Shown: positions 3,816-61,693 of the stretch, one piece after another
How positions within the stretch are numbered: the stretch's first letter is position 1
Layout: the number at the start of each line of letters is the position of its first letter
NCBI GenBank assembly: GCA_964626845.1
Contig: CAZVGR010000014.1
Coordinates: 12,570-76,569 of the forward strand
Length of the DNA stretch: 64,000 nt
Source: an uncultured Anaerolinea sp.
Lineage (GTDB): Bacteria > Chloroflexota > Anaerolineae > JAAEKA01
Direction of reading: 5' to 3'
Notes under the pieces: generated by a model
What the model saw: only the letters and a program-made list of their open reading frames with translations
Told to the model about the DNA's origin: nothing
The model's database searches: none
Position numbers and translations under genes: made by a program

Positions 3816-3824
3816 GCCAGCCCT

Positions 3825-7110: not shown

Positions 7111-7216
7111 GGGGAGTTGCAAGTTGCAGGTGGCAAGTTGCAGGTGGCAAGTTGCAGGTGGCAAGTTGCAGGTTGCAGGTGGCAAGTTGCAAGTTGCAGG
7201 TGGCAAGTTGCAGGTA
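7111..7216. repeat. Tandem ~14-bp (two heptamer) repeat (GCAAGTTGCAGGTG)n
   Basis: About 7.5 direct units visible in sequence. Confidence 0.9.
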
Positions 7217-7242
7217 GATGCATAAACAGCACAGACAAACGC

Positions 7243-7382
7243 CCTTGTCTACTTGCCTACTTGCCTACTTGCCTACTTGCCTACTTGTCTACTTGTCTAC
7301 TTGCCTACTTGCCTACTTGTCTACTTGCCTACTTGCCTACTTGCCTACTTGCCTACTTGCCTACTTGCCTACTTGCCTACTG
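7243..7382. repeat. Tandem octamer repeat (CTACTTGC/CTACTTGT) x17; reverse complement of the GGCAAGTAG family
   Basis: Direct inspection. Partially complementary to the 7111-7216 array. Confidence 0.9.
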
Positions 7383-7417
7383 ATCTGCCCTCCCAGTGTA
7401 CGCTATGACAATGGCGA

Positions 7418-7446
7418 TTGACAAATCATCTATCGTCCATTATAAT
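7418..7446 (+). promoter_or_regulatory. Consensus sigma-70 promoter TTGACA-17bp-TATAAT upstream of the LacI-family gene
   Basis: 'ttgaca' 7418-7423 and 'tataat' 7441-7446 with exact 17-bp spacing. Confidence 0.55.
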
Positions 7447-7450
7447 CTTT

Positions 7451-7467
7451 GTTAGCGTTAACGAAAC
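7451..7467 (+). promoter_or_regulatory. Candidate operator (palindromic core CGTTAACG) overlapping the predicted transcription start
   Basis: 'gttagcgttaacgaaac' sits immediately downstream of the -10. CG-centred palindrome typical of LacI-family sites. Confidence 0.3.
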
Positions 7468-7499
7468 CCCTCAATGCTGTCGCAATGGAGCGACTCCTC

Positions 7500-8501
7500 A
7501 TGAGTGTTCGCACCACCATGGCTGATGTAGCCCGCGAGAGCGGCGTCTCCCTGATGACCGTCTCACGCGTAATCAACGGCAAGACCGACGTCAGCGAAGA
7601 TACCCGCCAGCGCGTGCTGGAGGTAATCGACCGGCTGAACTACCGGCCCAGCGGCATTGCGCGCAGCCTGGCCACCCGCCGGACGGGTACGCTGGGTCTG
7701 GTGGTGCCTGATATCTCCAATCCCTTTTTTGCCGATGTCGCCCGCGGCGTGGCCGCAGCAGCCTACCGCGAGGACTACACCGTCTTTCTTTGCAGCAGCG
7801 AAGAAGATGGGCAGCGCGAGCTGGACCTGCTCCATTCGTTAGAAGAGAAGCGCATCGATGGCCTGATCCTGTGCAGCTCGCGCCTGGCTGACGACCAGTT
7901 GGCGGCCACGCTGGCCCGCTTTCCCTCGGCGGTGCTGGTCAATCGCAGCTCACGCGATCCCCAGTTCGGAACCGTACTCGCTGACGATGAGGCCGGCGCC
8001 CGCATGTTGATGACGCATCTGCTGCGCAGCGGACGCCGCCAGATCGGTTTCCTGGCCGGACCCCCCATGTCCCACAGCGGTTTGGCCCGCATGCGCGGCT
8101 ACCAGACAGCCCTGACTGTGGCAGACCAGCGCTGTGAAGCTGCGCTGATGGAGCCATGTGCGCCGGTGGTGAAAGGCGGCGTCGAAGCAGCTCTGACGCT
8201 GTTGGCCGCACAGCCCCAGATCGATGCCTTGTTCTGCTACAACGACCTGGTGGCTGTCGGCGCGCTGCAAGCCTGCGCCCGGCTGGGACGGCGCGTGCCT
8301 GACGACGTGGCCGTGACCGGTTTCGATGACGTCCCCCTGGCCGCGCTGGTAACGCCGGCGCTGACCACCTGTCGCGTGCCCCGCCACGAGTTGGGCGTTC
8401 AGGCCACGCAGCGGCTGCTAACGCAGATCGATAGCCGGCCCAACAGATGCTGCGAGACGGTCGTGCCGGTTGCCATGGTTGTCCGGGCCAGCGCACCTTA
8501 G
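7500..8501 (+). CDS. LacI family transcriptional regulator
   Basis: N-terminal HTH (MADVARESGVSLMTVSRVING) and periplasmic-binding-like sugar domain. Start taken at ATG 7500 with a GGAG SD; ORF begins at 7449. Confidence 0.85.
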   Translation: MSVRTTMADVARESGVSLMTVSRVINGKTDVSEDTRQRVLEVIDRLNYRPSGIARSLATRRTGTLGLVVPDISNPFFADVARGVAAAAYREDYTVFLCSSEEDGQRELDLLHSLEEKRIDGLILCSSRLADDQLAATLARFPSAVLVNRSSRDPQFGTVLADDEAGARMLMTHLLRSGRRQIGFLAGPPMSHSGLARMRGYQTALTVADQRCEAALMEPCAPVVKGGVEAALTLLAAQPQIDALFCYNDLVAVGALQACARLGRRVPDDVAVTGFDDVPLAALVTPALTTCRVPRHELGVQATQRLLTQIDSRPNRCCETVVPVAMVVRASAP

Positions 8502-8643
8502 CGCAAGCGATCAAGGAGGAGAAGAAAGGAGGTGCTGTCGCCCATTTGTCTGCTGCCCATCGATCCACGGCGCAACGACGCCCGTGATGCGGACCCTATG
8601 CCGGTTCCCTGTTGCCCCAAAGATGTCGCTTAGGAGGTTCTCT

Positions 8644-10689
8644 ATGTTTCGCTCGCTGCTTGTCCTGCTTCTGTTAGCCTCGCTGTTGGTAGCTGCCTGT
8701 GGCTCCCCGGCCCCGGCCCAACCCGCTCCGACCGAACCTGCCCCCGCCCAGCCTGCCCCGGCTGAGCCTGCCCCCGCTCAACCTGCTCCGGCTGAGCCCG
8801 AGCCTACTCAACCAGCGCCCGCCGAGCCGGTGTCTGCGCCATCCAAATACAACGAAGCGCCCATGTTGGCGGCGCTGGTGGCCAGCGGCGACCTGCCGCC
8901 GGTGGACGAGCGCTTGCCCGAAGAGCCGCTGGTGCATCCAGTCGCCGAGATCGGCAAATACGGCGGCACGCTGCGCCGCGGCTTCACCGGGCCCGGCGAC
9001 CACAACAACTACACGCGCCTGTCCTACGACGCGCTGGTGCGCTTCTCGCCCGACGGCGCCGAGGTCATCCCCCATATCGCCAAGGGGTGGGAGTCCAACG
9101 AAGACTTCTCAGTGTGGCGGGTTTTCCTGCGCGAGGGCATGAAGTGGTCGGACGGCGCGCCCTTCACGGCTGACGACATCCTGTTCTGGTACGAGCACAT
9201 CCTGCTCAACACCGACTTGATGCCCAGCGTGCCTGGCTGGATGATGAACAGCGACGGCACAGTGGCCAGGGTCGAGAAGTTGGATGATTACACCGTCCAA
9301 TGGACTTACGCCCAACCCAACACGGCCTTCCTGCTGGACCTGGCTAACAAAGACGGCGCCGACAGGTCGATCACCAACCTGGCCTTCGTGCCGGCCCATT
9401 ACCTCCAGGACTTCCATCCTGCGTTCACCGAACAGGCTGCGCTGGATGCCGTGGTCAAGGAGCGAGGCTTCGACACCTGGACCGAGCTGTTTGCCGTGGA
9501 GGCCATGCCGCACCTGAGCGGCAAGCGGCCCAGCACGGCAGCTTGGGTGCCGGACAACTCGACGGTGGCCGACCCGGTCTTCCGGCTCAAGCGCAATCCC
9601 TATTACTTCGCCGTGGACCAGGCTGGCAACCAGTTGCCCTACCTGGACGATGTGCGCTACACCTTCTTCGCGGACGTTGCAGCCCTGAACCTGGCTGCAG
9701 TGGGCGGCGAGATCGACATGCAGGGCCGCCACATCCAGATGAGCAACTACCCGGTGCTGGTGGAAAACGCCGAGAAGGGCGGCTACAACGTATTGACCTG
9801 GCCTACGTTCGGCGGTTCGGATGCGGTGCTGATGTTCAACCAGACCTTCAACGCCGACCCTGGCATCGCCGCGCTGTTGCAGAGCAAGGACTTCCGCATC
9901 GCCATGTCGCACTCCATTGACCGCGAGTCGATCAAGGAGCTGGCCTTCCTGGGCATCGGCGAGGCGCGCCAGGGTGTGCCCGCGCCCAACCACCCCTACT
10001 ACCCCGGCGATGAGTACGCCTTCAAGTACACCGAGTACGACACCGCTAAGGCCAACGAAATCCTGGATGGGCTGGGCTTGACCGGCCGCGACGGTGAGGG
10101 TTTCCGCACCCTGCCCGACGGCGGCCGGCTGGATATCGAGATCCAGGTCATCCCCGCCTTTGCCAACTGGCCCGACATTGGCCAGATCATCGTGCAAAAC
10201 TGGGCCGACGTGGGCGTGCGCGCCCACATCGAGACCCGCGAGCGCGCCTTGGGCTTCCAGATGCGCAACACCAACGACCTGATGGTGGAGATCTGGAACG
10301 AGGACACCACCGCCTTCCCCTTCAGCGGCCAGCCTAAGATGGACCCGCGCAGCGATCCGGCCCTAACCCTGGCGCCGCTGGTGCGCCAGTGGTACCTGAG
10401 CGGCGGCGCTGAGGGTGTCGAGCCGACGCCAGAGCTGGCCCGGCTGGTGGAGATCATCGACGAGGCCAAGCTGTCCGGCCGCGAGCGCCAGATCGAGCTG
10501 GCCCAGGAGTTGTTCCGTCTCTGGGCTGACAACATCTGGGAGATCGGCACCGTCGGCCTGACCCCCATGGTGCAGGGTGTGGTCGTGGTCAACCAGGACC
10601 TGCGCAACGTGCCTGAGACGGCCGGCAACGACTGGCCGCTGCGCACGCCCGGCAACACCCGGCCGGAGACGTTCTTCTTCGACCGGTAG
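8644..10689 (+). CDS. ABC transporter substrate-binding lipoprotein, family 5 (Opp/Dpp-like)
   Basis: Start ATG 8644 after AGGAGG. Lipoprotein signal (LLVAAC). PAPAQPAPAEP tandem linker, then SBP_bac_5 domain. Confidence 0.85.
   Translation: MFRSLLVLLLLASLLVAACGSPAPAQPAPTEPAPAQPAPAEPAPAQPAPAEPEPTQPAPAEPVSAPSKYNEAPMLAALVASGDLPPVDERLPEEPLVHPVAEIGKYGGTLRRGFTGPGDHNNYTRLSYDALVRFSPDGAEVIPHIAKGWESNEDFSVWRVFLREGMKWSDGAPFTADDILFWYEHILLNTDLMPSVPGWMMNSDGTVARVEKLDDYTVQWTYAQPNTAFLLDLANKDGADRSITNLAFVPAHYLQDFHPAFTEQAALDAVVKERGFDTWTELFAVEAMPHLSGKRPSTAAWVPDNSTVADPVFRLKRNPYYFAVDQAGNQLPYLDDVRYTFFADVAALNLAAVGGEIDMQGRHIQMSNYPVLVENAEKGGYNVLTWPTFGGSDAVLMFNQTFNADPGIAALLQSKDFRIAMSHSIDRESIKELAFLGIGEARQGVPAPNHPYYPGDEYAFKYTEYDTAKANEILDGLGLTGRDGEGFRTLPDGGRLDIEIQVIPAFANWPDIGQIIVQNWADVGVRAHIETRERALGFQMRNTNDLMVEIWNEDTTAFPFSGQPKMDPRSDPALTLAPLVRQWYLSGGAEGVEPTPELARLVEIIDEAKLSGRERQIELAQELFRLWADNIWEIGTVGLTPMVQGVVVVNQDLRNVPETAGNDWPLRTPGNTRPETFFFDR
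8701..8830 (+). repeat. In-frame tandem DNA repeat encoding the Pro/Ala-rich linker (PAPAQPAPAEP)n of the binding protein
   Basis: ~33-bp period visible in sequence. Confidence 0.7.
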
Positions 10690-25476: not shown

Positions 25477-25609
25477 CAGAGACCCGGTGAATAGAATTCA
25501 CCGTCTGACAACACCAAGGCCCCTCAGGGCCTGCCTCCCCAGCGGCTGAGGCCGCTTCGTCCTGTTCAGCCAGGGATTTCCAATCCCTGACGTTTGTACC
25601 GAGCAAACC

Positions 25610-48720: not shown

Positions 48721-49062
48721 TTATGACTGCGGGTCGAACTGGAAGACGCGCAACTCCTGGTCGCAGCGGCAGGCCCTGGCGATGCGCGCGGCCCACGCGA
48801 CCGCCTCCTCGCGCGAGGGCAGTTCGAGCACGGTGAAGCCGCCGTCGAGCGGGGGCGCCCACGGATAGCCGCCCTCGGCGACCGCGCCGTCGGCCGAGAC
48901 GAGCACAGGTGGCACGTCCGCGTCGATGCCGCCGCCGAAGACGTAGACGCCGGCAGCCTTTGCCTCATCGATCACGGCATGTGCGTCACGGCCCACCGCC
49001 TCCCACTCGCCGTCGGGCACGTCCATCGCCGCGCTGGGAAAGGAAATCAGGTACTTGGACAT
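48721..49062 (-). CDS. YciI-like (YCII-related) family protein
   Basis: 113 aa. DGPF-type domain pattern. Confidence 0.6.
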   Translation of the reverse strand: MSKYLISFPSAAMDVPDGEWEAVGRDAHAVIDEAKAAGVYVFGGGIDADVPPVLVSADGAVAEGGYPWAPPLDGGFTVLELPSREEAVAWAARIARACRCDQELRVFQFDPQS

Positions 49063-49117
49063 TGGTGCTCCTTCTGTTGGGGATTATGACCGCGAGTTCG
49101 TCGCCTGCAAGCACTCG

Positions 49118-49651
49118 TTAGCCCGGCCGATTGGACAATTGGTCATCTTCTCTGTGACCCGGACACCCCGCGGTTTGGAGTACCATTGTGACGACTTCCT
49201 GCAAAGCGATGCTGGCGTCAATCTCATGATCTGCAACCTTTCGCAACAAAGGCTCAATCTCGGAGATGTTGCTCAGGACAGCGGCTGCTTCTGCGGGGTC
49301 CTTCCCGTATGGATTCCCCGTTCGCGTGGTCAGCCGGTCGAGGAGTACTTCGGCAGGCGCACTTAGCAGGATCACATGATCGAACTGCGGCAGGAACTCT
49401 CCCATATTCGCTGCACAACCACTCACGAAGAGCCAGTCGGCAGCCTCGTCTGCGAGAAGATCCTGAACCGCGTCCTCCCTCCACACCCAGTCCTTGCCAA
49501 CACGGGATCCCGTCGGATTGCCGGCGATGTCGACCCAGTGCGACCACTCTTCTGAGTCGAGATCCACCGCCATGTACCCGAATTCACCGAGTTTCTGCGT
49601 GATCGATGATTTTCCGGTTCCGGACATGCCGGTCAGTAGAACTCGGATCAT
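49118..49651 (-). CDS. P-loop NTPase (small kinase-like AAA family ATPase)
   Basis: Walker A 'LTGMSGTGKSS'. 177 aa. Lower-GC context. Confidence 0.55.
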   Translation of the reverse strand: MIRVLLTGMSGTGKSSITQKLGEFGYMAVDLDSEEWSHWVDIAGNPTGSRVGKDWVWREDAVQDLLADEAADWLFVSGCAANMGEFLPQFDHVILLSAPAEVLLDRLTTRTGNPYGKDPAEAAAVLSNISEIEPLLRKVADHEIDASIALQEVVTMVLQTAGCPGHREDDQLSNRPG

Positions 49652-49855
49652 GAAGCCCTATCCTCCTTGTGATGTCGGTGCCCAAGCGCCTAAACCGGCT
49701 AACGGATCAAGAGATTCATGTGGTGCGCTGGCAGCCAAGAGACAACTCGATTGGCAAAGCCAGCCACCATCATGTACCGTCGTTCAGGGTGCAGAGCGCC
49801 GGTTCTCTTCCTAACATTAGCCGTCCTGTTCGGTTTACGGCTTCGTTCACCGGTG

Positions 49856-50287
49856 TTATTGGTTGGCGACGATTCCGTAGACGTAGATACCATCTTCAGG
49901 CCCGTTCTTGAACCGGTTAGCAACCCGTTGCACGGGCCACATGACCGCTCCGCTGGCCAAGACAACGGCGATGTTCATTTCGGCTTCTGGATCATTGTCG
50001 TCCCCTTGCCACTTCCCGTTGTAAGCACGAATGATGACCTCGCCAACGTATGAGCCGATTGCGAAGATGCGGGAGCCAAGCTGTTCCGCAAGCAGACCCC
50101 CGGGGATGGCTTGTCCGTTTTGCGCATGTTCATCGAAAAACCGATCGATTTCGCGAAGGCTCTCAATCGAAAAATCGGCGTGGTAGCCGGAACTGGAAAG
50201 CGCCTTGGCGATCCACTCTGCCCCTTTTCGGGCGTCATCGATAACCGCCGGCACTTGTGCATGTCGCTTCCGTAACCAGTCAAACAT
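49856..50287 (-). CDS. Hypothetical protein
   Basis: Start ATG 50287 (MFDWLRK); ORF to 50344. No family recognised. Confidence 0.35.
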   Translation of the reverse strand: MFDWLRKRHAQVPAVIDDARKGAEWIAKALSSSGYHADFSIESLREIDRFFDEHAQNGQAIPGGLLAEQLGSRIFAIGSYVGEVIIRAYNGKWQGDDNDPEAEMNIAVVLASGAVMWPVQRVANRFKNGPEDGIYVYGIVANQ

Positions 50288-50539
50288 GCGGGTACCTCTT
50301 ACCAGCGAACGGAATGAGAAATCTACGGGGCATGCTGTCACCAAGCAGGCGCCTCTTCATGCAAAGCCAGTCATCATTAAAGATCGGCGGTTGTTCAGAA
50401 TGAATACCGCCGCACGAAGGCAAGTGTAACATTGCGGGCCAAAAAGGTCAACAGCAATCCCGCCTGGCAAGCGCACAGGACGAGGTGTGATTTCCCAATC
50501 CGCCCGCCATGGGCAATCAGCCATCAACAAGCGCCGGCC

Positions 50540-51050
50540 TCACGGCTCACCTGACTCTTCTTCTGCCTGCAGCCAGGCCAGTGTCTCGGCCTGGGCTTGC
50601 TCAAACGAGACGACCGGTTGATAACCCAGCGCGCGCGCGGCCTTATCGTGCGAGAAGAAGAAGTCAACGCAGGTGGAAGCGACCACATAGCGCGTGAGCG
50701 TTGGGGTCGACGGGCCGATTCCCCGCCGGGCGGCCGTTTCCATCACGATCGCCAGCCAATAGGCCACACGGTAGGGGATGCGCCTCCTCGCCGGCGGGAA
50801 CCCGAACGCGGCCAGGTAAGGTGTGAAGAAATCGAAGAAGTTCCCTGCCGGGTGGTCGCCAATGAAGTACGCCTGCCCGGCGGCTGGGCCAGCCAGCGCC
50901 TCAGCGGCCAGGATGTGGGCATGCACTACGTTGGCCACGTACACAATTGTCAAAGGCGCGAACGCTCACGCCGCGGTTTTTCAGCTCCGAAGCCAGGGCA
51001 GCGCCAAGAAATCCCGCCCCACCTATGACCAGTGCGTTTTGCATCAAGTT
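50540..51050 (-). pseudogene. Disrupted NAD-dependent epimerase/3-beta-hydroxysteroid dehydrogenase gene (N-terminal Rossmann segment fused out of frame to a C-terminal fragment)
   Basis: Minus-strand 'MQNALVIGGAGFLGAALASELKNRGVSVRAFD' at 51046-50951 is in a different frame from the 137-aa C-terminal ORF 50540..50953. About 150 codons of the central domain are missing. Confidence 0.55.
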
Positions 51051-51051
51051 C

Positions 51052-51396
51052 CTATCGATTACCTTTGGCCCGGTTGTGGGTAGTGCAGAGCATCTGGCAG
51101 TTCCTGGCTGTACTTTCGCCGCCTTTGCTCCATGCCGAGACGTGGTCGGCGTCCATTTCGTTGAACTTGTAGATTCTGCTCTTGTTCGCGGTGTCCCCGA
51201 CCGCGCAGAGCGGGCAGTTGGACTTGCCCTTGCCCTGGGCTGCTTGCGTCTGCTGAGTGTAGGCGACTTGCTTTACCTTGTCATCGAATACCCGAACTGC
51301 CAATAACTTCTTGTTTGCCGACGCGGCGTGCAGGCCTTGGTTCAACGACTTGCTTTCCATGGCGTGATTGGCTTCCTTGGGTTTCTTTGATGGCAT
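51052..51396 (-). CDS. HNH endonuclease
   Basis: Motif 'CPLC...DHV.AWSKGG...NCQMLCTTHNRAKGN'. Confidence 0.75.
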   Translation of the reverse strand: MPSKKPKEANHAMESKSLNQGLHAASANKKLLAVRVFDDKVKQVAYTQQTQAAQGKGKSNCPLCAVGDTANKSRIYKFNEMDADHVSAWSKGGESTARNCQMLCTTHNRAKGNR

Positions 51397-51537
51397 TTCG
51401 GGCTAATGTTCCGCTTCAGCCGCGGCGCGCAGCGCCGTCCACTGCATGCTGTTGTTAGCCGGCCTTCCGAGGCCTGTAGTTGCTTTCCTAGTCTCTCCGG
51501 TCATTTGTTCCCATTTCAGAGCGTTGAGCGCGTAGCG

Positions 51538-52590
51538 TCAGTCAGAAACATCATCGGGCATGTCTTCTTGATCGGCATCGACAAGCTCGTCGGTACGCTC
51601 AATTCGGAGCTTATCGTTGCCAACCTCAAACTCGACGTGCCCCCCGTCGGCCATCCGCACCGTCATCGGCGGCAAAGGGTCGGACGCGTCATTCAGTAGC
51701 GCCGCAAGCGGTTCTCGGACGTATCGTTCCAGAAACACGCTCATCACAGGTCCGGCCTTGGACTCAAGGTGCTGCCAAGCTGAGTCGCCAACGAACGCAT
51801 GCCCGCCCACGTCGTGGAACGCCTTAACCAAATCTGTAAGCTTAGGGTTGGGGGTTGGATCAAGTACAACAAGCACGGGAGTGAACCCCGACCCAACACA
51901 GTCAATTGGGAACTGAAGCTCTTCCCCCCACCGGCCTTGGCCCGATGCTGCGATTGTCACACGAATCTTGAATTCGTAAGCCAACTTCTGCTTCACGCAA
52001 TCGACCTGGCGGCCCTTCCCTCGGTCGCCCTGCCGTTTCACGGGGCTTCTCTTCGCACTTACCGGCGTGCCGCCGATGGCATTTGCGAGAATCGGCTCGA
52101 ACAGGTATCCAGTCTCCTGAGCCGCGCGATTGTCCAAGTCGTAAAGCCACTTGCGCCAGTACAGCATTCCGGCGAGTGCCGGGGATGGCAGGCTACCGAA
52201 CTGAAGCAATCCGCGCGGACCCACCTGGTCGAAGGTTGGGAAGGCTTGTCGCTGCAGGATTTGTTCGTACTTTAGGCGGCTCTTGTGCAGTGTTGCGAGG
52301 CAGGAGAAGTACGTGTCTGAGTCCGGCTTGAGGGAGAACAACTTTGCTGCCAAGTCCTCAAATGGAATCCTCGCCAACGTGAGAGAGGAAACCGGCCAAG
52401 TTTCGAAGAACGGCGGCAGGTCTTGAGGTACCTCGGGGACTTGCGAGATGAGATTAAGGTCTTTGACTACGACGCCGCAGAGATAGGCGCAGACCTCTTC
52501 AGAAAGAGGCACTGCCATCTCGCTGTTGCCAACGTTGCGTGCCTTTTCAATAAGCGTCTTCTGAGATAGTGTGAGTTCGTAGTTTGTCAT
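51538..52590 (-). CDS. Putative type II restriction endonuclease (partner of the adjacent C5-methyltransferase)
   Basis: 350 aa, no family recognised. Start codon overlaps the methyltransferase stop. Low-GC island. Confidence 0.45.
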   Translation of the reverse strand: MTNYELTLSQKTLIEKARNVGNSEMAVPLSEEVCAYLCGVVVKDLNLISQVPEVPQDLPPFFETWPVSSLTLARIPFEDLAAKLFSLKPDSDTYFSCLATLHKSRLKYEQILQRQAFPTFDQVGPRGLLQFGSLPSPALAGMLYWRKWLYDLDNRAAQETGYLFEPILANAIGGTPVSAKRSPVKRQGDRGKGRQVDCVKQKLAYEFKIRVTIAASGQGRWGEELQFPIDCVGSGFTPVLVVLDPTPNPKLTDLVKAFHDVGGHAFVGDSAWQHLESKAGPVMSVFLERYVREPLAALLNDASDPLPPMTVRMADGGHVEFEVGNDKLRIERTDELVDADQEDMPDDVSD

Positions 52591-53843
52591 TAGTCCCGTC
52601 CTACTTGCGCGGTCTCGGTGTCCGCGAACAGCGTGAGCTGTTGGGACCGAATGATGGCGCGGTAGCTGCTCTCGACCGCATCGACGGTCTTCTGAAGCGC
52701 TGGGCTCATGCCGTTTGAGTTCGTGGGCACAAAACTCTTAAGCCCTGCGTCCGATCTCCGATCTGTAATCTCGCGGAAGGCATGTGCAAGATGAGCGGCA
52801 ATTGCATTTGCAAAACGAGGCGGTACGGCATTGCCAATAAGCAGGGCTCGCTGCGCCTGAGTACCAGCAAATTCAAAGTCATCGGGAAACGTCTGGAGTC
52901 GCGCACACTCCCGAAGTGTCAGATTGCGATGTGCAGTCGGATGTACGAACTCGGAAGTGGCCCCGCTGGTGATCGCCTTTGACGGCAGGTCCGGATCTAG
53001 TCGCCGTAGTCCTGAAGGTGCGCCCCCCCTGCGTTCTGTTGGGGTCCCATCCATCACCCTCCTGAAGGCGCGGCGGCGGTAGGTTTCGTGCCAGAGTTCC
53101 TCTGGAATGTCCTTCATGGTCTTGCCGATGCCGAGTGCCTCGAAACGAAGACGGTCCATCTCATTCGGCGGACGAGAGAAATGATCGGTAACGACCGCGC
53201 TTTCTGGATCGCATGCTGCATTTGGAAGGCCATCGAGAGCCTTGGCGACGCTGTCGCACAATGGAAGCTTACCCGCCACGAGATCTGCCCCTGGCGCGCC
53301 TGTGGCGCAGTGGGTCGGCTCCGGAAACCCGGGGTCCCATCCTAAACCTGCAATTGCCAACACCCGTTTGCGATGTTGTGGAACCCCGTAGTTAGCGGCG
53401 TTCACTTTGCGAAGGTGAATGCAGTAGCCAGCACTTACAAGAGGATCGAGCAGATCGGTAACCCAACGGCCTCCCTCACCAGTCAGGAAGCCTTCCACGT
53501 TTTCAAAAACAAACGCTTTTGGGCGATGTCTTGCCACGAGGTGAGCGAAGACCGCCACCAGCGTGTTGCGGGCATCACCAGGCTTCCGCAGGCCTGCTGA
53601 CGAGAACCCCTGACAGGGAGGACCACCGATGATGATGTCGCATGGGGGCAGCACCGTGTCCCAGTTGAGCTTCACATTTTCTACATGGTCCCCGATGTTC
53701 CTCCGGTACGTTTCTACCGCAGGCAAGAACGCATCGGCAGCCCAGACGATACTGAAGCCCTGAGCACGAAATCCTAACCCCAGCCCGCCTGCACCGCAGA
53801 AGAGGTCAGCGACTGTGATTGCTGGCCGCATTTCGAAATCCAA
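52590..53843 (-). CDS. DNA (cytosine-5)-methyltransferase
   Basis: Motifs I FCGAGG, IV GGPPCQGFS, VI ENV, VIII QHRKRV, IX/X RLQTFPDDF and GNAVPP. TTG start after a GGAG SD. Confidence 0.85.
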   Translation of the reverse strand: MDFEMRPAITVADLFCGAGGLGLGFRAQGFSIVWAADAFLPAVETYRRNIGDHVENVKLNWDTVLPPCDIIIGGPPCQGFSSAGLRKPGDARNTLVAVFAHLVARHRPKAFVFENVEGFLTGEGGRWVTDLLDPLVSAGYCIHLRKVNAANYGVPQHRKRVLAIAGLGWDPGFPEPTHCATGAPGADLVAGKLPLCDSVAKALDGLPNAACDPESAVVTDHFSRPPNEMDRLRFEALGIGKTMKDIPEELWHETYRRRAFRRVMDGTPTERRGGAPSGLRRLDPDLPSKAITSGATSEFVHPTAHRNLTLRECARLQTFPDDFEFAGTQAQRALLIGNAVPPRFANAIAAHLAHAFREITDRRSDAGLKSFVPTNSNGMSPALQKTVDAVESSYRAIIRSQQLTLFADTETAQVGRD

Positions 53844-53902
53844 CTTTTACTCCATCACGCTAAGTTAGGCAGAAACGCCATCTCAGTTGAGTTCCGGCTA
53901 CC

Positions 53903-54207
53903 GTAACTGCTCAGCCGGCCGGTCAGAAACCGGGTTTTTCTCGTTGGGCAATGATTTCTGAGTTTGCAAACGCATTGCTCGGGGCTATGATAGCCGCTTC
54001 CGCAGCAAAAACCCGGTTTCTCTAAGGAGCTGTTTAAAAAGCCCGGCAGCGTCGGAATCAGAGGTTGAAACCATCTGGCTGAAAGTACGAAGCGGCCTCA
54101 GCCGCTGGATTCCAGGCCCTGAGGGGCCTTCGTGCTGTCAGCCGGTGGGTTTCCAACCACCGATCCGGGGCTTTTCAAACAGCCTCTAAGCCCAGCCTGA
54201 GCAGTAA
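53903..54207. mobile_element. Left copy of a ~140-bp MITE (TIR TAACTGCTCAG.../...CTGAGCAGTAA), interrupted by a nested MITE
   Basis: Reverse-complement match (1 mismatch) to 60237-60376, split by the 54026-54183 insertion. Confidence 0.7.
54026..54183. mobile_element. Nested 158-bp MITE with ~16-bp TIRs (GCTGTTTAAAAAGCCC / GGGGCTTTTCAAACAGC) and 7-bp target-site duplication CTCTAAG
   Basis: CTCTAAG at 54019-54025 and 54184-54190. The right MITE copy at 60237-60376 has a single uninterrupted CTCTAAG. Confidence 0.7.
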
Positions 54208-54354
54208 CCAGCTACCTAATAATTCGCGGGAATGCCGGCCGTCATATCCCGCTATTGCTCCATCGCCTACCGCTGACGGCCAGTCCATAGTGGCCGCCAT
54301 TGTACCATTTCACCCGTGGGAGGGCAAAAGGGCGCGTTCCGGGCTGCCCAGGGC

Positions 54355-54390
54355 GCGAGAGATGCCATTTCTGCGGAAGAAATGGCATCT
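54355..54390. repeat. Palindrome GAGATGCCATTTCT-gcggaag-AGAAATGGCATCTC (GAGATGACATTTCT family) just downstream of the LTD gene stop
   Basis: Direct inspection. Confidence 0.8.
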
Positions 54391-54410
54391 CTTCGCGTCA
54401 CGCCACCACC

Positions 54411-57400
54411 CTACCGGATTGACAACCACGCATCCCACAGAGTCGCCAGCGCCGGCGGCCGCACGGTCAGCACCGCACCAGTGAGGGGCAGGAAGACGGG
54501 CGCGCGGTTCCAGGCCGTGTCGTCCTGCACGCCGTTGCTGTAGGCTGTCCCGTTGGCGCGGCCGGCCGCGGCAGCCCGGCCGCGCTGCAAGTCGGCCTCG
54601 CGGCGCGGCAGCAGGCGATAGCCGCTCTCGGTCTGGCTGACCACGCCCACCACCGTCCACACCTCGCCGATGTTGACGTAGGGCCGGCGGATGCCGGTCG
54701 CAGGCCGGATGGTGATGCGCGCCTCGCCGCTGCCGTCGTCCAGATAGAGGGTGGTTTCCTTCCAGAAGCCGGTGATGGGGCCGCTGAGCTGCACCAGCCG
54801 GCCCTCGTTGGCCTCGGCCACCTCGCCCGTGCGGATAGGCAGCGGCGCAGGCGGCGCGGCCGGCTGCATGGTCTTGATGTCGTCGATGCGCACCAGGCTG
54901 ATCTGCCGCTCCTCGTAGAAGGTGCCCAGCCGGCCGTTGACTCGCACCCACTGCCCCTCGCTGAGCGGCGGCCACTGGGCCGAACGCAGGAAGACCCGCA
55001 TGCCGCCCGTGGCATCCTGGATGTAGATCTCCTGGTCGTCAAAGACGTTGGGCAGCGCCGTCACCTGGCCCTCCAGCGTCAGCCGCGTGCCGTCGGGCAG
55101 GCTGCGGGCGTGGGCGATGGTCGCCAGGTCGAAGTTGAAGCGGTCGTAGGGCTGTCCACTGCCCGACCCGCCGCCGCTACTGCTTCCACCGCCGCCGCCC
55201 GATCCGCCGCCGCTGTTGGGGTCGGCCGCGTTGGCCTGGCCTGGCGTTTCGATGCAGTCGCGGGACCACTCGCCCACGCCATCGGGCAGTCGGCACCAGG
55301 ATTGGTCATAGCCGGAGAAGACATTGTAGCTCATGCTGTCGGCCAGACTATTGTCCGGGTAGAGCAAGCGCACCTGTTCGCTGCTGGCGTCCAGCGCCAA
55401 GCCGCTCTGAGCGCGGTAGATCACCAGATAGCCCTGGGCCGGCAGCACAAGACCAGAGGGCAGGATGTAGGTCCGGTCTGGCTCATGGCTGGCTGGCTGG
55501 CCATCAGCCAGCTTCCAACCGGCCAGATCGACTGGCTCCTCGCCCAGATTTGTCAACTCGATCCACTCGTCCAGATAGCTTGGGACGCCGTTGCCGTCCC
55601 AGTCCACGTTCTGCGGCGAGGGCAGCACCTCGTTCAGCCGCACGGTGGTGGCCACCGGCGTCGGCGTCAGTTGCGGCGTCGCGGTGGGCGTCGGCGTGGG
55701 CGTGCCGCCGGGCGTGTTGCTGCCGCCGGGCGTGGGCGGGTAGCTGCGCGTCCACTCTGCGCCGCCGTCCACCGTCTTACTGGCGGCCTGATCGTCGCGG
55801 CTGCTGCTGTACTGGGTCTCCTCCACCACCAGGCCATCGGGCCGCAGCAGCCGCACCCAGTCGCCGTCGTTGTTCAGGGCGATGCCGGTCTGGCTGCGGA
55901 AGAAGAGCAGGAAGCCGCGGGCCGGGATGGTCGCGCCGGGCGGCAGGGTGTAGGGCGCTGAGCCGCCGCTCGCCACGTCGTCCAACTGCCAGCCGCTCAG
56001 ATCGACCGCGAAGTCGTTGGCGTTGTATAGCTCGATGTACTCATCGTCCTGGTTGGCTGCGCCGTCGCCGTTCCAATCGGAGGCGGGGTCGGGCATGTAC
56101 TCGTTCAGGCCGACGCCATCAGGATAGACGCCGGGCGTAGCCGTCAGCGTGGCAGTCGGTGTTGGCGTCGGGGTCGCGGCCTGGTTGGACGCGCCGGGCG
56201 AGGGCGGGTAGGCCATCGTCCACTGGTCGCCGCCGTCCACCGTCTTGCTGTAACTGACGTCGGCCGGCGCGGCCGTGTAGCTGTGGTTCTCCACCTCCAC
56301 GCCGTCGGGCCGCAGCAGCCGCACGCTGTCGCCGCCGCTGTTGTTGAGGGCGATGGCCGTGTCCCGGCTCCACAGGGTTAGGAAGCCTTGCGCCTCGATC
56401 ACCGCGCCGGCCGGCAAGGTGTAGGGCGACGACCCACCGCCCGCCACATCGTCCACCTGCCAACCGCTTAAGTCGACGGCGAAGTCGTTGGCGTTGTAGA
56501 GCTCGATGTACTCGTCGTTGGCGTCGCCCACGATGCCATCGCCGTTCCAGTCGGCCTCGGGGTTGGGCATGAACTCGTTGAGCACAATGCCATCAGGGTA
56601 GACCACGGGCGTACCGGTGGGCGTGGCGGTCGGGGTAGGCGTGGCCGTAGGGGTGTTGGCAGCCTGGTTGGACGCGCCGGGCGAGGGTGGGTAGCTCATC
56701 GTCCATTCGTCGCCGCCATCTGTGGTCTTGCTGTAGCTGACGTCGGCCGGCGCGGCTGTGTAGGGGTGGTTCTCCACCTCCACACCGTCGGGCCGCAGCA
56801 GCCGCACGCTGTCGCCGCCGCTGTTGTTGAGGGCGATGTTCGTGTCGCGGCTCCAGAACACCAGGAAACCTTGCGCCTCGATCACCGCGCCAGCCGGCAA
56901 GGTATAGGGGGACGAGCCGCCGCCGGCGACGTCGTCTACCTGCCAGCCGCTCAGGTCGACGGCAAAATCGTTGGCGTTGTAGAGCTCAATGTACTCGTCG
57001 TTGGCGTCGCCCCGGATGCCGTCTTCGTTCCAGTCAGCCTCGGGATTGGGCATGAACTCGTTGAGCACGATGCCTTCGGGATAGTCTACCGGCAGCGGGG
57101 TTGGCGTGGGCGTCGGCGTGCCGGCCGGCTGGTTGGATGCGCCAGGCGAGGGCGGATAGTCCGTCGTCCACTGGTCGCCGCCGTCCACGGTCTTGCTGTA
57201 GCTCACATCGGCCGGCGCGGCCGTGTAGCTGTGGCTCTCCACCTCCACACCGTCGGGGCGCAGCAAGCGCACGCTGTCGCCGCCGCTGTTGTTGAGAGCG
57301 ATGTTTGTGTCCCGGCTCCAGAACACCAGGAAGCCTTGCGCCTCGATCACCGCGCCAGCAGGCAAGGTATAGGGGGACGAGCCGCCGTTGGCGATGTCAT

Positions 57401-60173
57401 CCAACCGCCAGCCGCTCAGGTTGACGGGGAAGTCGTTGGCGTTGTACAGCTCGATGTACTCGTCGTTGGCGTCGCCAATGATGCCATCTTCGTTCCAGTC
57501 GGCCTCCGGGTTGGGCATGAACTCGTTGAGCACGATGCCGTCAGGGTAGACCACGGGCGTGCCGGTGGGCGTGGCCGTCGGGGTAGGCGCGGCCGTGGGA
57601 GTGTTGGCGGGCCGGTTGGGCGCGCCGGGCGAAGGCGGATAACTGCGCGTCCACTGGCTACCGCCGTCCACAGTCTTGCTGTAAGCCTCATCGTCGCGGC
57701 TGCTGGGATATTCGACCTGCTCGACGACTGCCCCATCAGGCCGCAGCAGGCGCACCCAGTCGCCGTCGTTGTTGAGCGCAATGCCGCTCTGGCTGCGAAA
57801 AACCAGCAGAAAGCCGCGCGCCTCAATGATTGTGCCGGTGGGCAGGATGTAAGGCGGGCTGCCGCTGGGCGTGAAGGGCGAGCGAAGCTGGCCAAAGCCA
57901 TCGTCTACGTCGTCCAGGCGCCAGCCGCTGAGATCGACGGCAAAGTCGTTGGCGTTGTACAGCTCGATATATTCGTCGTTCAGATCAGCCGTGCCGTTGC
58001 CGTCCCAATCGGAGGCGGGGTCGGGCATGAATTCGTTGAGGCTGATGCCATCAGGATAGACGCCGGGGGTGGCTGTTGGCGTCGCAGTCGGCGTTGGGGC
58101 CGGTTGGTTGGATGCGCCAGGCGAGGGCGGGTGGGTCATCGTCCACTGGTCGCCGCCATCCTCTGTTTTGCTGTAGGCCACGTCAGCCGGCGCGGCGGTG
58201 TAGCTGTGGCTCTCCACCTCCACGCCGTCGGGCGTCAGCAGACGCGCTGCATCGCCGCCGCTGTTGTTGAGGGCGATGCGCGTGTCCCGGCTCCAGAACA
58301 CCAGGAAGCCCTGCGCTTCGATCACTGTGCCGGCCGGCAGGGTGTAGGGGGACGAGCCGCCGCTGGCGATGTCGTCCAGTTGCCAGCCGCTCAGGTCCAC
58401 AGCGAAGTCGTTGGCGTTGTACAGCTCGATGTACTCGTCGTTAGTGTCCCCCAGGATGCCGTCGTCGTTCCAGTCGGCCTCCGGGTTAGGCATAAACTCG
58501 TTCAGGCTGACGCCTTCCGGGTAGGGCGTAGGCGAGGCGGCGGGCGTCGTTGCAGATGTGGGCGATGGCGTCGCCGTTGGCGTGGGCGTAGGTGTGGCCG
58601 TTGGCGTAATCGTGGGCGTGGCTGTCCAGGCCGGCGGCTGGTTGGATGCGCCAGGCGACGGCGGGTAGGCCATGGTCCATTCTGCGCCGCCGTCCACGGT
58701 CTTACTGTAACTCACGTCAGCCGGCGCAGCCGTGTAGAAGTGGCTTTCGACCTCCACCCCGTCCGGCCGCAGCAGCCGCGCCCAGTCGCCGCCGCTGTTG
58801 TTGAGCGCGATGCCGGTGTCCCGGCTCCACAGCACCAGATGGGACTGCGACTCGATCCAGGCGCCGGCCGGCAGGGTGTAGGGCGCTGATCCGCCGTTAG
58901 CCACGTCGTCCAGCATCCACCCACCGATGTCCACGGCAAAGTCGTTGGCGTTGTAGATCTCGATGTACTCGTCGTTGCCGTCGCCCAGAATGCCGTCGTT
59001 GTTCCAGTCGGCCTCCGGATTGGGCATGAACTCGTTCAGGCTGAGGCCGGTGGGATAGACGGCCGGGGTGGCCGTGTGGGTGGGGGTTGGGGGCGGCGCG
59101 GGTTGGTTGGAAGCGCCCGGCGAGGGCGGGTAGGTCATGGTCCAATCGCTGCCGCCATCCACCGTTTTGCTGTAGGCCACGTCAGCCGGCGCAGCGGTGT
59201 AGCTGTAGCTCTCGACCTCAACACCGTCGGGCCGCAGCAGACGCACCATGTCGCCGCCGCTGTTGTTGAGCGCAATGCGAGTATCCCGGCTCCACAGCGC
59301 CAGGAAGCCATGCGCCTGGATCGTCGTGCCAGCAGGCAAGGTGTAAGGCGACGAGCCGCCGTTGGGTATGTCATCCACGCGCCAGCCGCCCAAATCAACG
59401 GCAAAATCGTTGGGATTATACAGCTCGATGTACTCGTCGTTGGCGTCGCCGAAAATGCCGTCGTCGTTCCAGTCGGCCTCGGGGTTGGGCATGAACTCGT
59501 TGAGGTGGATGACAAGCGGCGCGGGGGTGGGCGAAGGAGTCGCAGTGGGCGTGGGCGTGGCGGTGGCTGGCCCTGGCGGCTGATTGGCGGCGCCTGGCGA
59601 GGGTGGGTAATCAGCCGTCCACTGGTTGCCGCCATCGACTGTTTTGCTGAAGGCCCCATCCGCTTGGGTCTGGGTGTAGCTGAAGCTCTCAACAGGGACA
59701 TCGTCCGGCGTCAACAGGCGCACCGCGCCGCTGCTGTCGTCCAACTCAAGGCCTGTTTGGACACCCCACAGCACCAAATGACGCTGCGCGCGCAGCACTG
59801 TACCAGGAGGCAGCGCATAGGGCGGCAAGCCGCTGCTCTCGCCAGCGTCCAGCTTCCACCCGCTGATGTCCACGTCGAAAGGGTTGGCGTTATAAAGCTC
59901 GATGTATTCGTCGTTGTTGCCGCCCGTCACCCCATCGCCGTTCCAGTCATACACCGGCTGTGGCATTAACTCGTTGAGGACAACGCCGCCAGGATAGCTG
60001 CTCTGAGCAGCCGCAGGCAGCACCCCTGCGCCACGCGCGATCTGTGGGCCGAGAACGAGCAGCAGAACACTGCCGGCTGTCAGCAGGCCGGCGATCCAGG
60101 AACGATACGATGCACGACAAGACGACATGATCCCACCTCCACAAAGCTGTCTGGCAGGCCGATCCCACGACAC
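54411..60173 (-). CDS. Secreted giant protein with ten tandem lamin-tail-domain (LTD) repeats, Thr/Pro linkers, a Gly/Ser-rich linker and a C-terminal OB-fold-like domain
   Basis: 1920 aa. Signal peptide. Ten copies of 'LNEFMPNPEADWN.DG..GD.NDEYIELYNANDFAVDLSGW.LDD...GGSSPYTLPAG' (LTD/PF00932-like), each followed by a PTPTATP linker. ~450-bp near-identical DNA periodicity. Confidence 0.8.
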   Translation of the reverse strand: MSWDRPARQLCGGGIMSSCRASYRSWIAGLLTAGSVLLLVLGPQIARGAGVLPAAAQSSYPGGVVLNELMPQPVYDWNGDGVTGGNNDEYIELYNANPFDVDISGWKLDAGESSGLPPYALPPGTVLRAQRHLVLWGVQTGLELDDSSGAVRLLTPDDVPVESFSYTQTQADGAFSKTVDGGNQWTADYPPSPGAANQPPGPATATPTPTATPSPTPAPLVIHLNEFMPNPEADWNDDGIFGDANDEYIELYNPNDFAVDLGGWRVDDIPNGGSSPYTLPAGTTIQAHGFLALWSRDTRIALNNSGGDMVRLLRPDGVEVESYSYTAAPADVAYSKTVDGGSDWTMTYPPSPGASNQPAPPPTPTHTATPAVYPTGLSLNEFMPNPEADWNNDGILGDGNDEYIEIYNANDFAVDIGGWMLDDVANGGSAPYTLPAGAWIESQSHLVLWSRDTGIALNNSGGDWARLLRPDGVEVESHFYTAAPADVSYSKTVDGGAEWTMAYPPSPGASNQPPAWTATPTITPTATPTPTPTATPSPTSATTPAASPTPYPEGVSLNEFMPNPEADWNDDGILGDTNDEYIELYNANDFAVDLSGWQLDDIASGGSSPYTLPAGTVIEAQGFLVFWSRDTRIALNNSGGDAARLLTPDGVEVESHSYTAAPADVAYSKTEDGGDQWTMTHPPSPGASNQPAPTPTATPTATPGVYPDGISLNEFMPDPASDWDGNGTADLNDEYIELYNANDFAVDLSGWRLDDVDDGFGQLRSPFTPSGSPPYILPTGTIIEARGFLLVFRSQSGIALNNDGDWVRLLRPDGAVVEQVEYPSSRDDEAYSKTVDGGSQWTRSYPPSPGAPNRPANTPTAAPTPTATPTGTPVVYPDGIVLNEFMPNPEADWNEDGIIGDANDEYIELYNANDFPVNLSGWRLDDIANGGSSPYTLPAGAVIEAQGFLVFWSRDTNIALNNSGGDSVRLLRPDGVEVESHSYTAAPADVSYSKTVDGGDQWTTDYPPSPGASNQPAGTPTPTPTPLPVDYPEGIVLNEFMPNPEADWNEDGIRGDANDEYIELYNANDFAVDLSGWQVDDVAGGGSSPYTLPAGAVIEAQGFLVFWSRDTNIALNNSGGDSVRLLRPDGVEVENHPYTAAPADVSYSKTTDGGDEWTMSYPPSPGASNQAANTPTATPTPTATPTGTPVVYPDGIVLNEFMPNPEADWNGDGIVGDANDEYIELYNANDFAVDLSGWQVDDVAGGGSSPYTLPAGAVIEAQGFLTLWSRDTAIALNNSGGDSVRLLRPDGVEVENHSYTAAPADVSYSKTVDGGDQWTMAYPPSPGASNQAATPTPTPTATLTATPGVYPDGVGLNEYMPDPASDWNGDGAANQDDEYIELYNANDFAVDLSGWQLDDVASGGSAPYTLPPGATIPARGFLLFFRSQTGIALNNDGDWVRLLRPDGLVVEETQYSSSRDDQAASKTVDGGAEWTRSYPPTPGGSNTPGGTPTPTPTATPQLTPTPVATTVRLNEVLPSPQNVDWDGNGVPSYLDEWIELTNLGEEPVDLAGWKLADGQPASHEPDRTYILPSGLVLPAQGYLVIYRAQSGLALDASSEQVRLLYPDNSLADSMSYNVFSGYDQSWCRLPDGVGEWSRDCIETPGQANAADPNSGGGSGGGGGSSSGGGSGSGQPYDRFNFDLATIAHARSLPDGTRLTLEGQVTALPNVFDDQEIYIQDATGGMRVFLRSAQWPPLSEGQWVRVNGRLGTFYEERQISLVRIDDIKTMQPAAPPAPLPIRTGEVAEANEGRLVQLSGPITGFWKETTLYLDDGSGEARITIRPATGIRRPYVNIGEVWTVVGVVSQTESGYRLLPRREADLQRGRAAAAGRANGTAYSNGVQDDTAWNRAPVFLPLTGAVLTVRPPALATLWDAWLSIR

Positions 60174-60236
60174 CGCTTCGCATCGGCTGGCCAGCTCGGT
60201 TGTTACGGAACCCCGCCGAGAAACATTCGGCGTTTG

Positions 60237-60376
60237 TTACTGCTCAGGCTGGGCTTAGAGAAACCGGGTTTTTGCTGCGGAAGCGGCTATCATAGCCCCG
60301 AGCAATGCGTTTGCAAGCTCAGAAATCATTGCCCAACGAGAAAAACCCGGTTTCTGACCGGCCGGCTGAGCAGTTA
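60237..60376. mobile_element. Right copy of the ~140-bp MITE in inverted orientation, with 9-bp target-site duplication CGGCGTTTG
   Basis: CGGCGTTTG directly flanks both ends (60228-60236 and 60378-60386). Internal hairpins (gcaatg...cattgc; gctatgatagc). Confidence 0.7.
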
Positions 60377-60439
60377 CCGGCGTTTGTTGTAATGGGGCTG
60401 ACGCCGGCGCTGCTATGGGGCGCCGATTCCAGCCTGAGC

Positions 60440-60485
60440 GGAGAAACAAAAACGGCTGCGGGCCTTCCAGGCCGCCCGCAGCCGT
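60440..60485 (-). terminator. Rho-independent terminator (stem CGGCTGCGGGCGGCC/GGCCCGCAGCCG followed by TTTTTGTTT on the minus strand)
   Basis: GC-rich hairpin plus U-tract immediately after the 60497 stop. Confidence 0.65.
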
Positions 60486-60496
60486 CTCACCAACCT

Positions 60497-61693
60497 CTAT
60501 GCTTGCTTGCCGTCCTTGGGCAGGTCGCCCAGGGCGCTTTCCAGGGAGCCCAGCCAGCGCTGCGCCTCTTGCAGGCGGTGCGCGGCGTAGGTCTCTTGCA
60601 GCCGCCAGAGCTGGCGGATCAGCCCACGCAATGTTTCGATGTCCTTACGCAGCGGCGGGAAGCCCACAGCCAGGTCGCGGTTGACCTTGTCCTGCTCGGC
60701 CCAGCGGTGATCCCACTCCAGGGTCTGCTTCTTCCAGCGCTTCTCGTCCTCGCTCAGGAACGCGTCCAGCTCCTTGCGCTGGCGCTCCTCGGCCAGGCGC
60801 TGCAGCTCGGCCACCTGGTGCTGGTCGCGGCGGATGCTCTCCTCGAAGCCTTGCAAGCTCTGCAAGATGCGCCGGCTGTCGTTGATGTGGGTATCAAAGC
60901 CCTGAACCCGCTTCTGCTGCTCGGCCATCAGATCGCGCTGTTGCTCAAACTCCTGCTGCCAGTTGGCCAGTTGGCGGGTGCGCTCTACGTCTGCCAGCTT
61001 CTGGCTCTCGACAAAGCTGGCCACCTCGTTGCGCATCTGATCGGGCACAGGCTGCACTGCGGCTACGGCCCGTTCCACCCGTTGAATGGCAGCTTCCAAA
61101 GGCGGCACCTTGCCAAACACGGCCTCGCTGCGCTTGAACAACTCCACGGTCTCCTGTTGCAACTGAGCAATCCGCTTGTTGTCCTGGGCGCGCTGCTCCA
61201 TGATAAAGGGCAGGCTGCGGGTACGCTCGTCGATGTCCTTGTTGATGTTGTTGACCTGCTGGCGCACCGCCATCACAATTTCACTCAGCCGTTGGTCTTC
61301 CGCCTTGCGCTGCTGCAGTTCCTCTTCGATGCGGCTGAAGCGCGGCAGCTCCTTGCGTACTTCTGACAGGCCGCGCGCGGCCGCCTCGCGCTCCGCGCCG
61401 CGCAGCCGCTCGCTCTCACGCTGGTCGGCCAGGCGCTGCTCCTCCTGGCGTTGCAGCATCAGTACCAGCTCATTCTTGAGCTGCTGCATGGCATCATCCA
61501 CCTGGCTGAAACGCACCAGTTGGGCCTGGGTGCTGGCCAACTGGCCCTCCAACTCCTGGATGCGCCGGGACTGCTCGACAATTTCAGTCGCCTGGCCCTC
61601 GATGCGCTGTTGCAGCTTGGCGATTTCCCCGCGGCCACGCCGATGTTCTTCGTCCAGCCAGGTAACCATCTGGCTCAGTTGATCTATATCCAT
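60497..61693 (-). CDS. Hypothetical coiled-coil protein
   Basis: 398 aa. Highly charged E/Q/R-rich heptad-like sequence. No family recognised. Confidence 0.5.
   Translation of the reverse strand: MDIDQLSQMVTWLDEEHRRGRGEIAKLQQRIEGQATEIVEQSRRIQELEGQLASTQAQLVRFSQVDDAMQQLKNELVLMLQRQEEQRLADQRESERLRGAEREAAARGLSEVRKELPRFSRIEEELQQRKAEDQRLSEIVMAVRQQVNNINKDIDERTRSLPFIMEQRAQDNKRIAQLQQETVELFKRSEAVFGKVPPLEAAIQRVERAVAAVQPVPDQMRNEVASFVESQKLADVERTRQLANWQQEFEQQRDLMAEQQKRVQGFDTHINDSRRILQSLQGFEESIRRDQHQVAELQRLAEERQRKELDAFLSEDEKRWKKQTLEWDHRWAEQDKVNRDLAVGFPPLRKDIETLRGLIRQLWRLQETYAAHRLQEAQRWLGSLESALGDLPKDGKQA

Follow-up and report, generated by a model that had tools for sequence, protein, structure and literature searches.

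A nested MITE insertion with IS5/IS1031-type ends and a probable 3-bp target duplication in a Chloroflexota genome

The locus and its gene context

The window analysed here, which is the whole stretch of 64 kb of DNA, contains an intergenic stretch at 53844-54410. It is bounded on one side by a cytosine-methyltransferase gene (PF00145, minus strand, start at 53831) and on the other side by the gene of a 1920-aa protein with ten Lamin-Tail domains (LTD), which spans 54411-60173 on the minus strand and has its stop at 54411. The LTD gene holds internal DNA repeats of about 470 nt that are 77-87% identical. MurA of the window is 86% identical to proteins named as coming from Anaerolineae or Caldilineales MAGs and 92% identical to a protein on a JGI metagenome contig, which places the host bacterium within this group of Chloroflexota. 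A relative (L104, MurA 92% identical) has murA, a 396-aa gene and the LTD gene in synteny with the window at the orthologous locus. The same L104 contig carries at 3879-7505 a gyrB gene with an intein bearing a LAGLIDADG endonuclease domain, according to precomputed Pfam hits.

The restriction-modification pair that follows the LTD gene in L104 is different from that in the window. In the window, the segment downstream of the LTD gene (about 49000-54000) has a G+C content of 0.57 against 0.65 and encodes a Dcm methyltransferase and an ApaLI-like endonuclease, while the same place in L104 (19176-21216) holds an N6/N4 methyltransferase and BglII-like fragments. This has the look of a swapped island of restriction-modification genes, with the MITEs at its border. 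Just past the stop of the LTD gene there is an inverted repeat (54358-54392), perfect over 15 bp and with a loop of 5 nt, which is kept in L104 and is probably the terminator of the LTD gene, although no T-run stands after it. Both MITEs described below are downstream of a promoter-like site at 54327-54299 on the minus strand, which is aimed at the operon of the Dcm methyltransferase and the ApaLI-like endonuclease; if this promoter is used, we infer that the leader would include a hairpin of about -84 kcal/mol.

A 141-bp host repeat in two inverted copies

Two copies of a 141-bp repeat, called the host repeat in the following, lie inverted to each other on either side of the LTD gene. The intact copy is found at 60237-60377 on the minus strand (RNA fold z = -4.6), contains the heptamer CTCTAAG once and represents the empty site. 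The left copy is on the plus strand and is split into a first part at 53903-54025, which ends in the target TAA and is 99% identical to the reverse complement of 60254-60377, and a second part at 54190-54207. The repeat ends in inverted termini of 12 bp, GTAACTGCTCAG, and has a further inverted repeat inside, perfect over 15 bp, and each copy stands between 9-bp direct repeats: CCGGCTACC at 53894-53902 and CCAGCTACC at 54208-54216 (8 of 9 positions matching) for the left copy, and two identical occurrences of CGGCGTTTG, at 60228-60236 and 60378-60386, for the intact one. Judged by these sequence features the host repeat is MITE-like itself, and its 9-bp target site duplication (TSD) points to a family different from that of the nested element.

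At both loci, the short-read contigs assembled independently from the same organism all end after the first 28-31 nt of the host repeat, which is the behaviour of a genuine multi-copy repeat, and they confirm the outer junctions of the host copies. Both copies are absent from L104, where the intergenic DNA is too diverged to serve as the ancestral empty site, and a search of viral contigs gave no match to the host repeat. A composite transposon, made of the inverted copies around the 5.8-kb LTD gene, was considered and rejected, since the 9-bp duplications are separate for the two copies, and L104 has the LTD gene at the same locus without the repeats.

The filled site and the empty site

The left region was aligned to the reverse complement of the right copy (60174-60500), with blastn as a second check. 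From 53903 to 54026 the left sequence agrees with the right copy at 123 of 124 positions, up to ...GGTTTCTCTAAG, and the match picks up again at CTCTAAGCCCAGCC... with 25/25 identical bases over 54184-54208, thus the two host copies are identical at 148 of 149 shared bases around a gap of 164 bp. The heptamer CTCTAAG occurs at 54020-54026 and again at 54184-54190 in the left copy, against the single occurrence in the intact one. The first-pass annotation had described a 158-bp MITE which splits the left copy after CTCTAAG and has this heptamer on both sides. The alignment confirms the split and the two heptamers; as to the length, the flanked insert is present but 157 bp (54027-54183) stand between the heptamers, and the extra bases of the left copy amount to 164. 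The insert has no similarity to the host repeat beyond chance (blastn), and the description of it as the nested insertion of a second, unrelated and non-coding element with terminal inverted repeats (TIRs) holds, the empty site being located within the same window. Moreover, copies of the insert exist elsewhere, and the intact repeat shows no tandem duplication of CTCTAAG.

The insert is an imperfect palindrome over its full length, with an RNA fold of -83 and -84 kcal/mol for the two strands (z = -7.5 and -7.7) and a z of -7.2 when folded as DNA. The sequence TTTCTC-TAA-GCCC is found once in the intact host copy, and when an insertion of GGAG...CCTC that duplicates TAA is placed into it, the observed filled sequence results exactly. 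Since the host copies show a single difference over 149 shared positions and the insert is present in one of the two, an insertion after the duplication of the host repeat is the simpler order of events. The activity at this locus had also been called recent or ongoing, which is supported only in part: a single full copy is visible in 64 kb, its left terminus is off the consensus, the searches gave no transposase, and ongoing activity of the nested element is unproven.

Boundaries, terminal inverted repeats and target duplication

By comparison with the copies L007, L016, L018, L019 and L021, as well as roughly 100 elements that have the same terminus, the nested MITE was delimited to 54026-54186 on the plus strand, a length of 161 bp; it is non-coding and overlapped only by ORFs of at most 41 aa. 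Its TIRs are 19 bp long, match at 16 of 19 positions and start with GAG or GGAG. The left one, GGAGCTGTTTAAAAAGCCC (54026-54044, plus strand), is non-canonical, with three mismatches to the consensus terminus GAGRCTGTTTGAAAAGCC, while the right one, which reads GAGGCTGTTTGAAAAGCCC as reverse complement (54168-54186, minus strand), is canonical and has no mismatch to GAGGCTGTTTGAAAAGCC. The 16-bp TIRs proposed at first do exist as an inverted pair, namely GCTGTTTAAAAAGCCC at 54029-54044 and its partner at 54168-54183 with one mismatch (chance expectation for such a pair, 0.21 matches at up to 3 mismatches), but the true TIRs are longer and the boundaries lie further out.

The two copies of TAA next to the 161-bp element are located at 54023-54025 and 54187-54189; TAA is single in the empty site, and flanks of the form TNA are found throughout the family. 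The other copies all have ...AAACAGCCTC at the right end with TAA, TTA or TCA next to it, irrespective of the flank, and every copy read inward from either side starts with GAG(A/G)CTGTTT. A fuzzy-terminus search which did not require TNA gave TNA before 12/12 ends in the Chloroflexota loci and the window. Among 107 unique ends with this terminus, 105 have T at -3, 103 have A at -1 and 71 have C at -4, and no position beyond C-TNA is conserved; in the 15 ends that come from scans without TNA in the pattern, the corresponding counts are 14, 13 and 10. For two-ended elements, TNA is present at 89 of 94 flanks, where the pattern used for the metagenome loci forced TNA at one flank per locus and left the partner flank free. 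The 3-bp flanks are identical in 30 of 47 two-ended elements, and the 17 others include some spurious or diverged pairings. The copy L007 lies between TAA and TAA, and L016 between TTA and TTA; the flanking 7-mers of L016, ACCTTAA and CTCTTAG, match at only 4 of 7 positions and form no duplication.

Since copies elsewhere keep the same ends, the CTC of the right CTCTAAG and the G of the left one are the element's own, and the 7-bp duplication proposed in the first-pass annotation has to be replaced. The GAG...CTC ends and the TNA flanks hold across the copies, therefore the real duplication, as read from sequence comparison, is the 3-bp TAA at a C|TNA|G target. The junctions imitate a 7-bp duplication because the element ends with ...CTC and starts with G, and the target itself read CTC-TAA-G. 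From the window locus alone, 3 bp and 7 bp are indistinguishable, and the 3-bp reading needs a target with CTC before TAA and G after it, for which we estimate a chance of about 0.05 from the flank frequencies of the 107 ends, a value that can be tolerated in view of what the whole family shows. The C and the G adjoining TAA reflect the preference of the family, and the other two matching bases are a coincidence. A 5-bp duplication of CTNAG was rejected, because the first G of the element is invariant and the base after the right TNA varies (TAA-C in L007). The left terminus of the window copy, GGAGCTGTTTAAAAAGCC, reads GGAG instead of GAG(R), with two of its three consensus mismatches in the first three bases, and owing to these mismatches the window copy may be immobile and no longer a substrate.

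Copies elsewhere and the four-hairpin core

When one genome per species was scanned for the pair of central hairpins of the element, 21 loci were obtained, all of them in Chloroflexota MAGs, including Anaerolineales H71_756, Caldilineales DTUCFX11, Chloroflexota USDE_maxbin.019 and others. At least 7 copies of the nested element are present in H71_756, where L007 and L016 are full-length (170 bp, 94% and 90% identical) and L019 and L010 are near-full-length or partial, these four having 90-94% identity; the H71_756 copies are overall 90-96% identical in blastn with the insert, and L018, L021 and L004 are end fragments of it (L018 and L021 again from H71_756). The window contains one full copy and one copy of the core only.

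This core of the nested MITE (54051-54168, plus strand) was defined by nhmmer, an alignment of 19 copies and RNAalifold. It consists of two invariant central hairpins, whose invariance is fixed by the search pattern, a closing stem, and two outer hairpins whose stems vary with compensatory changes (10 of 29 pairs). Such covariation does not prove a role as RNA, as palindromic DNA repeats show the same. The second core copy in the window (25485-25590, minus strand; nhmmer E = 1e-12, blastn 87% over the central 75 bp at 25499-25573) has no recognisable TIRs. It occupies a spacer of 133 bp that separates a URO-D gene from uxaC, at a distance of 9 nt from the URO-D stop and 20 nt from uxaC, and might be either a MITE that has decayed or a REP-like unit in its own right.

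Most core copies outside H71_756 and the window are likewise without TIRs. Two loci of Caldilineales DTUCFX11 are head-to-tail arrays of the core at contig ends, L012 (1-195) with 2.6 periods of 75 bp at 99% match and L017 (1-285) with 2.7 periods of 105 bp at 96% match; they are BIME-like in organisation and may be real arrays or repeats collapsed at assembly breaks. The core copies are found in short spacers, often 0-20 nt past a stop codon, and this placement may simply come about because, at a G+C content of 65%, TNA is rare except in stop codons and spacers. A search against Rfam gave no family in the window at gathering thresholds and only chance-level matches in 53800-54450 (E >= 1.8, searched to E 10).

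Transposase-encoding elements with the same terminus

A cognate IS with matching ends had been suggested as a further check, and such elements were found on contigs other than the window. A scan of viral contigs with GAGRCTGTTTGAAAAGYC gave the locus L022, and a metagenome scan with TNAGAGRCTGTTTGAAAAGCC gave 68 loci. On the IMG/VR contig of L022, an element of 2784 bp (6408-9191) has the terminus twice in inverted orientation, perfect 18-bp TIRs and a TGA/TGA duplication. It encodes a protein of 260 aa with the Pfam domains DDE_Tnp_1 (PF01609), DUF4096 (PF13340) and DDE_Tnp_1_2, which matches the NCBIfam model NF033580, 'IS5 family transposase', with E = 1e-67 and 228 bits at a cutoff of 110. 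Beside the transposase it carries several ORFs on about 1.7 kb of passenger DNA, which makes the element a small transposon and more than a plain IS.

Among the metagenome loci, elements of 856-910 bp (L032, L035, L046, L067, L070, L075, L081, L082 and L090) encode homologues of the L022 transposase with 41-54% identity in tblastn, and 3-bp TSDs were observed for L032, L035, L067, L070, L082, L090 and others. The 16-18 bp end is common to the nested element and the transposase carriers L022, L032, L035, L067, L070, L082 and L090; none of the carriers in the L022-L090 set is shown to be Chloroflexota. A second class of metagenome loci consists of many MITE families of 108-180 bp, which have only the terminus in common, and the interior of the nested MITE is found in 0 of the 68 loci.

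A homologue 86% identical to the L035 transposase bears the NCBI name 'IS5 family transposase', and the relatives of the L022 and L035 enzymes with this name come from Alphaproteobacteria and Gemmataceae. Homologues of these two transposases led to no autonomous copy in Chloroflexota, the nearest named ones being those of the Alphaproteobacteria and Gemmataceae, and tblastn found no IS5-family transposase in the 64-kb window (best E = 0.46) or in the 21 Chloroflexota loci. The expectation of a cognate IS is therefore borne out by L022 and the 0.86-0.91-kb elements, but not within the window or the 21 Chloroflexota loci.

The ISfinder family table gives 5'-GAG...CTC-3' as the termini of the IS1031 subgroup. 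This subgroup of IS5 prefers 5'-TNA-3' and generates exclusively a 3-bp direct repeat (PMC12016507). The transposase of ISGdi1 is 48% identical to the L022 enzyme; in an annotated plasmid the ends of ISGdi1 read TTA|GAGCCC...GGGCTC|TTA, the terminus being TTA|GAGCCCGATCCGAAAGTT...CTC|TTA. By sequence, the ends of the nested element appear to be of the IS1031 type of the IS5 family, with the matching target signature; judged by the TSD, the termini and the 48% identity to ISGdi1, the partner transposases would belong to the IS1031 subgroup.

Proposed origin and alternative explanations

We consider it highly probable that the insert is a non-autonomous MITE of 161 bp (54026-54186) with 19-bp TIRs of a widespread IS5-family clade of IS1031 type. 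A full-length relative would provide, in trans, a DDE transposase that binds the GAGRCTGTTTGAAAAG termini and excises or copies the element, which would then integrate at C|TNA|G through a 3-nt staggered cut, with TNA duplicated on repair; the target would here have been the TAA inside ...TTTCTCTAAGCCC... of one copy of the unrelated host repeat. We infer mobilisation in trans because the window and the fetched Chloroflexota loci have no matching transposase, and the partner IS would have resided in the source genome or in an ancestor of it. The origin of the MITE is probably that a core module became enclosed by IS ends, or else the TIR-less copies would be decayed MITEs.

There are other ways in which the same junctions might be explained. 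A MITE of 157 bp with 16-bp TIRs (GCTGTTT.../...AAACAGC) and a 7-bp staggered cut that duplicates CTCTAAG would account for the exact duplication of a heptamer that is single in the empty site, and the flanking 7-mers of L007 (CTGTTAG and CTCTTAG) also match at 6 of 7 positions. Yet the CTC that follows ...AAACAGC and the G in front of the left TIR are kept despite unrelated flanks, even on transposase-bearing elements, the L016 flanks agree in their 3-mers and at only four positions of the 7-mers, nothing is conserved beyond C-TNA, and a truncated element together with a target that restores both termini and TNA is less likely than the 3-bp model; such a 7-bp cut is very improbable. The direction of the event might also be reversed, that is, a 305-bp composite is ancestral and slippage between the two CTCTAAG repeats removed the insert from the right copy, or the left locus might be an assembly chimera. 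It is true that the polarity rests on two host copies and that the short-read contigs, which end within the host repeat, do not reach across the nested junction. Nevertheless, the junctions are exactly those predicted by a TNA-duplicating insertion, the outer host junctions are confirmed by the independent contigs, and with a free-standing element of the same boundaries in other genomes a nested insertion happened whichever copy is ancestral; we regard reversal or chimerism as the least probable of the explanations considered.

The structure of the core suggests an explanation of another kind, in which the insert is a REP/BIME/REPIN-like module or a small structured-RNA gene spread by something other than a DDE enzyme (a RAYT/IS200-type enzyme, recombination or template switching), and the TIR-like ends and TAA are incidental. 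The four hairpins with their compensatory changes would fit, as would the occurrence of the core without TIRs in most MAGs, its tandem arrays with periods of 75 bp and 105 bp, and its usual place 0-20 nt past gene ends, like that of REP and BIME. But the window copy and all H71_756 copies with visible ends bear IS5-type termini and TNA flanks, insertion by IS200/RAYT enzymes makes no target duplication whereas one is seen against the empty site, Rfam gave no match, and there is no conserved GTAG or CGTC head, the CGTC of the window copy being missing from the H71_756 copies. As the origin of the insert this is still less probable than the 7-bp cut, though not so improbable as reversal or chimerism. 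The IS5/IS1031-type, TNA-duplicating insertion is accordingly the reading we retain, and it makes the locus a real nested MITE insertion of a well-known kind.

Relation to known systems

The nested element resembles the IS1031 subgroup (ISGdi1, ISLrh) in its 3-bp repeat at TNA and its GAG...CTC termini, and its TIRs are identical to those of the 0.86-0.91-kb IS5-family elements with DDE_Tnp_1/DUF4096 transposases. Unlike an IS1031-type IS it has no transposase, is only 161 bp long and has an interior unrelated to any IS retrieved, and its TIR sequence differs from that of ISGdi1 (GAGCCCGATCCGAAAGTT). BrickBuilt of Porphyromonas gingivalis and ATR of Neisseria are MITE-like elements in which IS5-family TIRs (GAGACC...) surround an unrelated internal repeat which is thereby propagated (PMC4596501). 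They share with the nested element the non-autonomous nature, the intergenic location, the long stem-loops and the trapped repeat (PMC4596501), but differ in TIR sequence, phylum and cargo, which is a 23-nt minisatellite there and a four-hairpin module here; moreover, the TSDs of BrickBuilt are irregular, whereas TNA is consistent in the family of the nested element.

MITE-within-MITE nesting is common among the PIF/Harbinger-Tourist MITEs of eukaryotes, and the maize PIF has a 9-bp target, CWCTTAGWG, which was not used as evidence here. These MITEs and NuwaII make 3-bp duplications as the nested element does; however, they are eukaryotic and belong to another transposase clade, and PIF/Harbinger has in addition a second (Myb-like) protein. 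NuwaII, of the IS5-related PHIS superfamily, uses a C|TNA|G target and shows the ambiguity between 3 bp and 5 bp at empty sites (PMC4482050). For REP, BIME and REPIN sequences, PMC3733652 describes insertion without target duplication and a conserved GTAG or CGTC head. The core is like them in having short GC-rich hairpins, in being modular, sometimes tandem and intergenic near gene ends, and in its structure-preserving substitutions, while the window copy is unlike them in its DDE-type TIRs, its target duplication and the lack of a conserved GTAG/CGTC head.

It is conceivable, though we think it rather unlikely, that the core is an independently maintained element of Anaerolineae and Caldilineales, either a REP/BIME-like DNA module or an uncatalogued RNA motif at gene ends, which was captured and spread by IS5/IS1031-type ends. 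If so, the MITE would be a vehicle that brings a functional structural module to new intergenic sites, and this four-hairpin cargo is the only part of the system with wider potential. The nested insertion leaves the current understanding of transposition unchanged. What the locus provides is a MITE-in-MITE example with an internal control, the filled and the empty site being 6 kb apart, in Chloroflexota, where small mobile repeats are hardly described. It also gives a warning for annotation, that a 3-bp TNA duplication in a target which mimics the element termini can pass for a longer TSD.

The terminus GAGRCTGTTTGAAAAG is common to many unrelated MITE families and to 0.9-kb IS elements across metagenomes. 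On the metagenome contig of L092 two MITEs with this terminus (3685-3842 and 3846-3972) adjoin each other with a TCA in common, and in L069 two copies of a 180-bp MITE (1658-1837 and 2817-2996) lie 1 kb apart.
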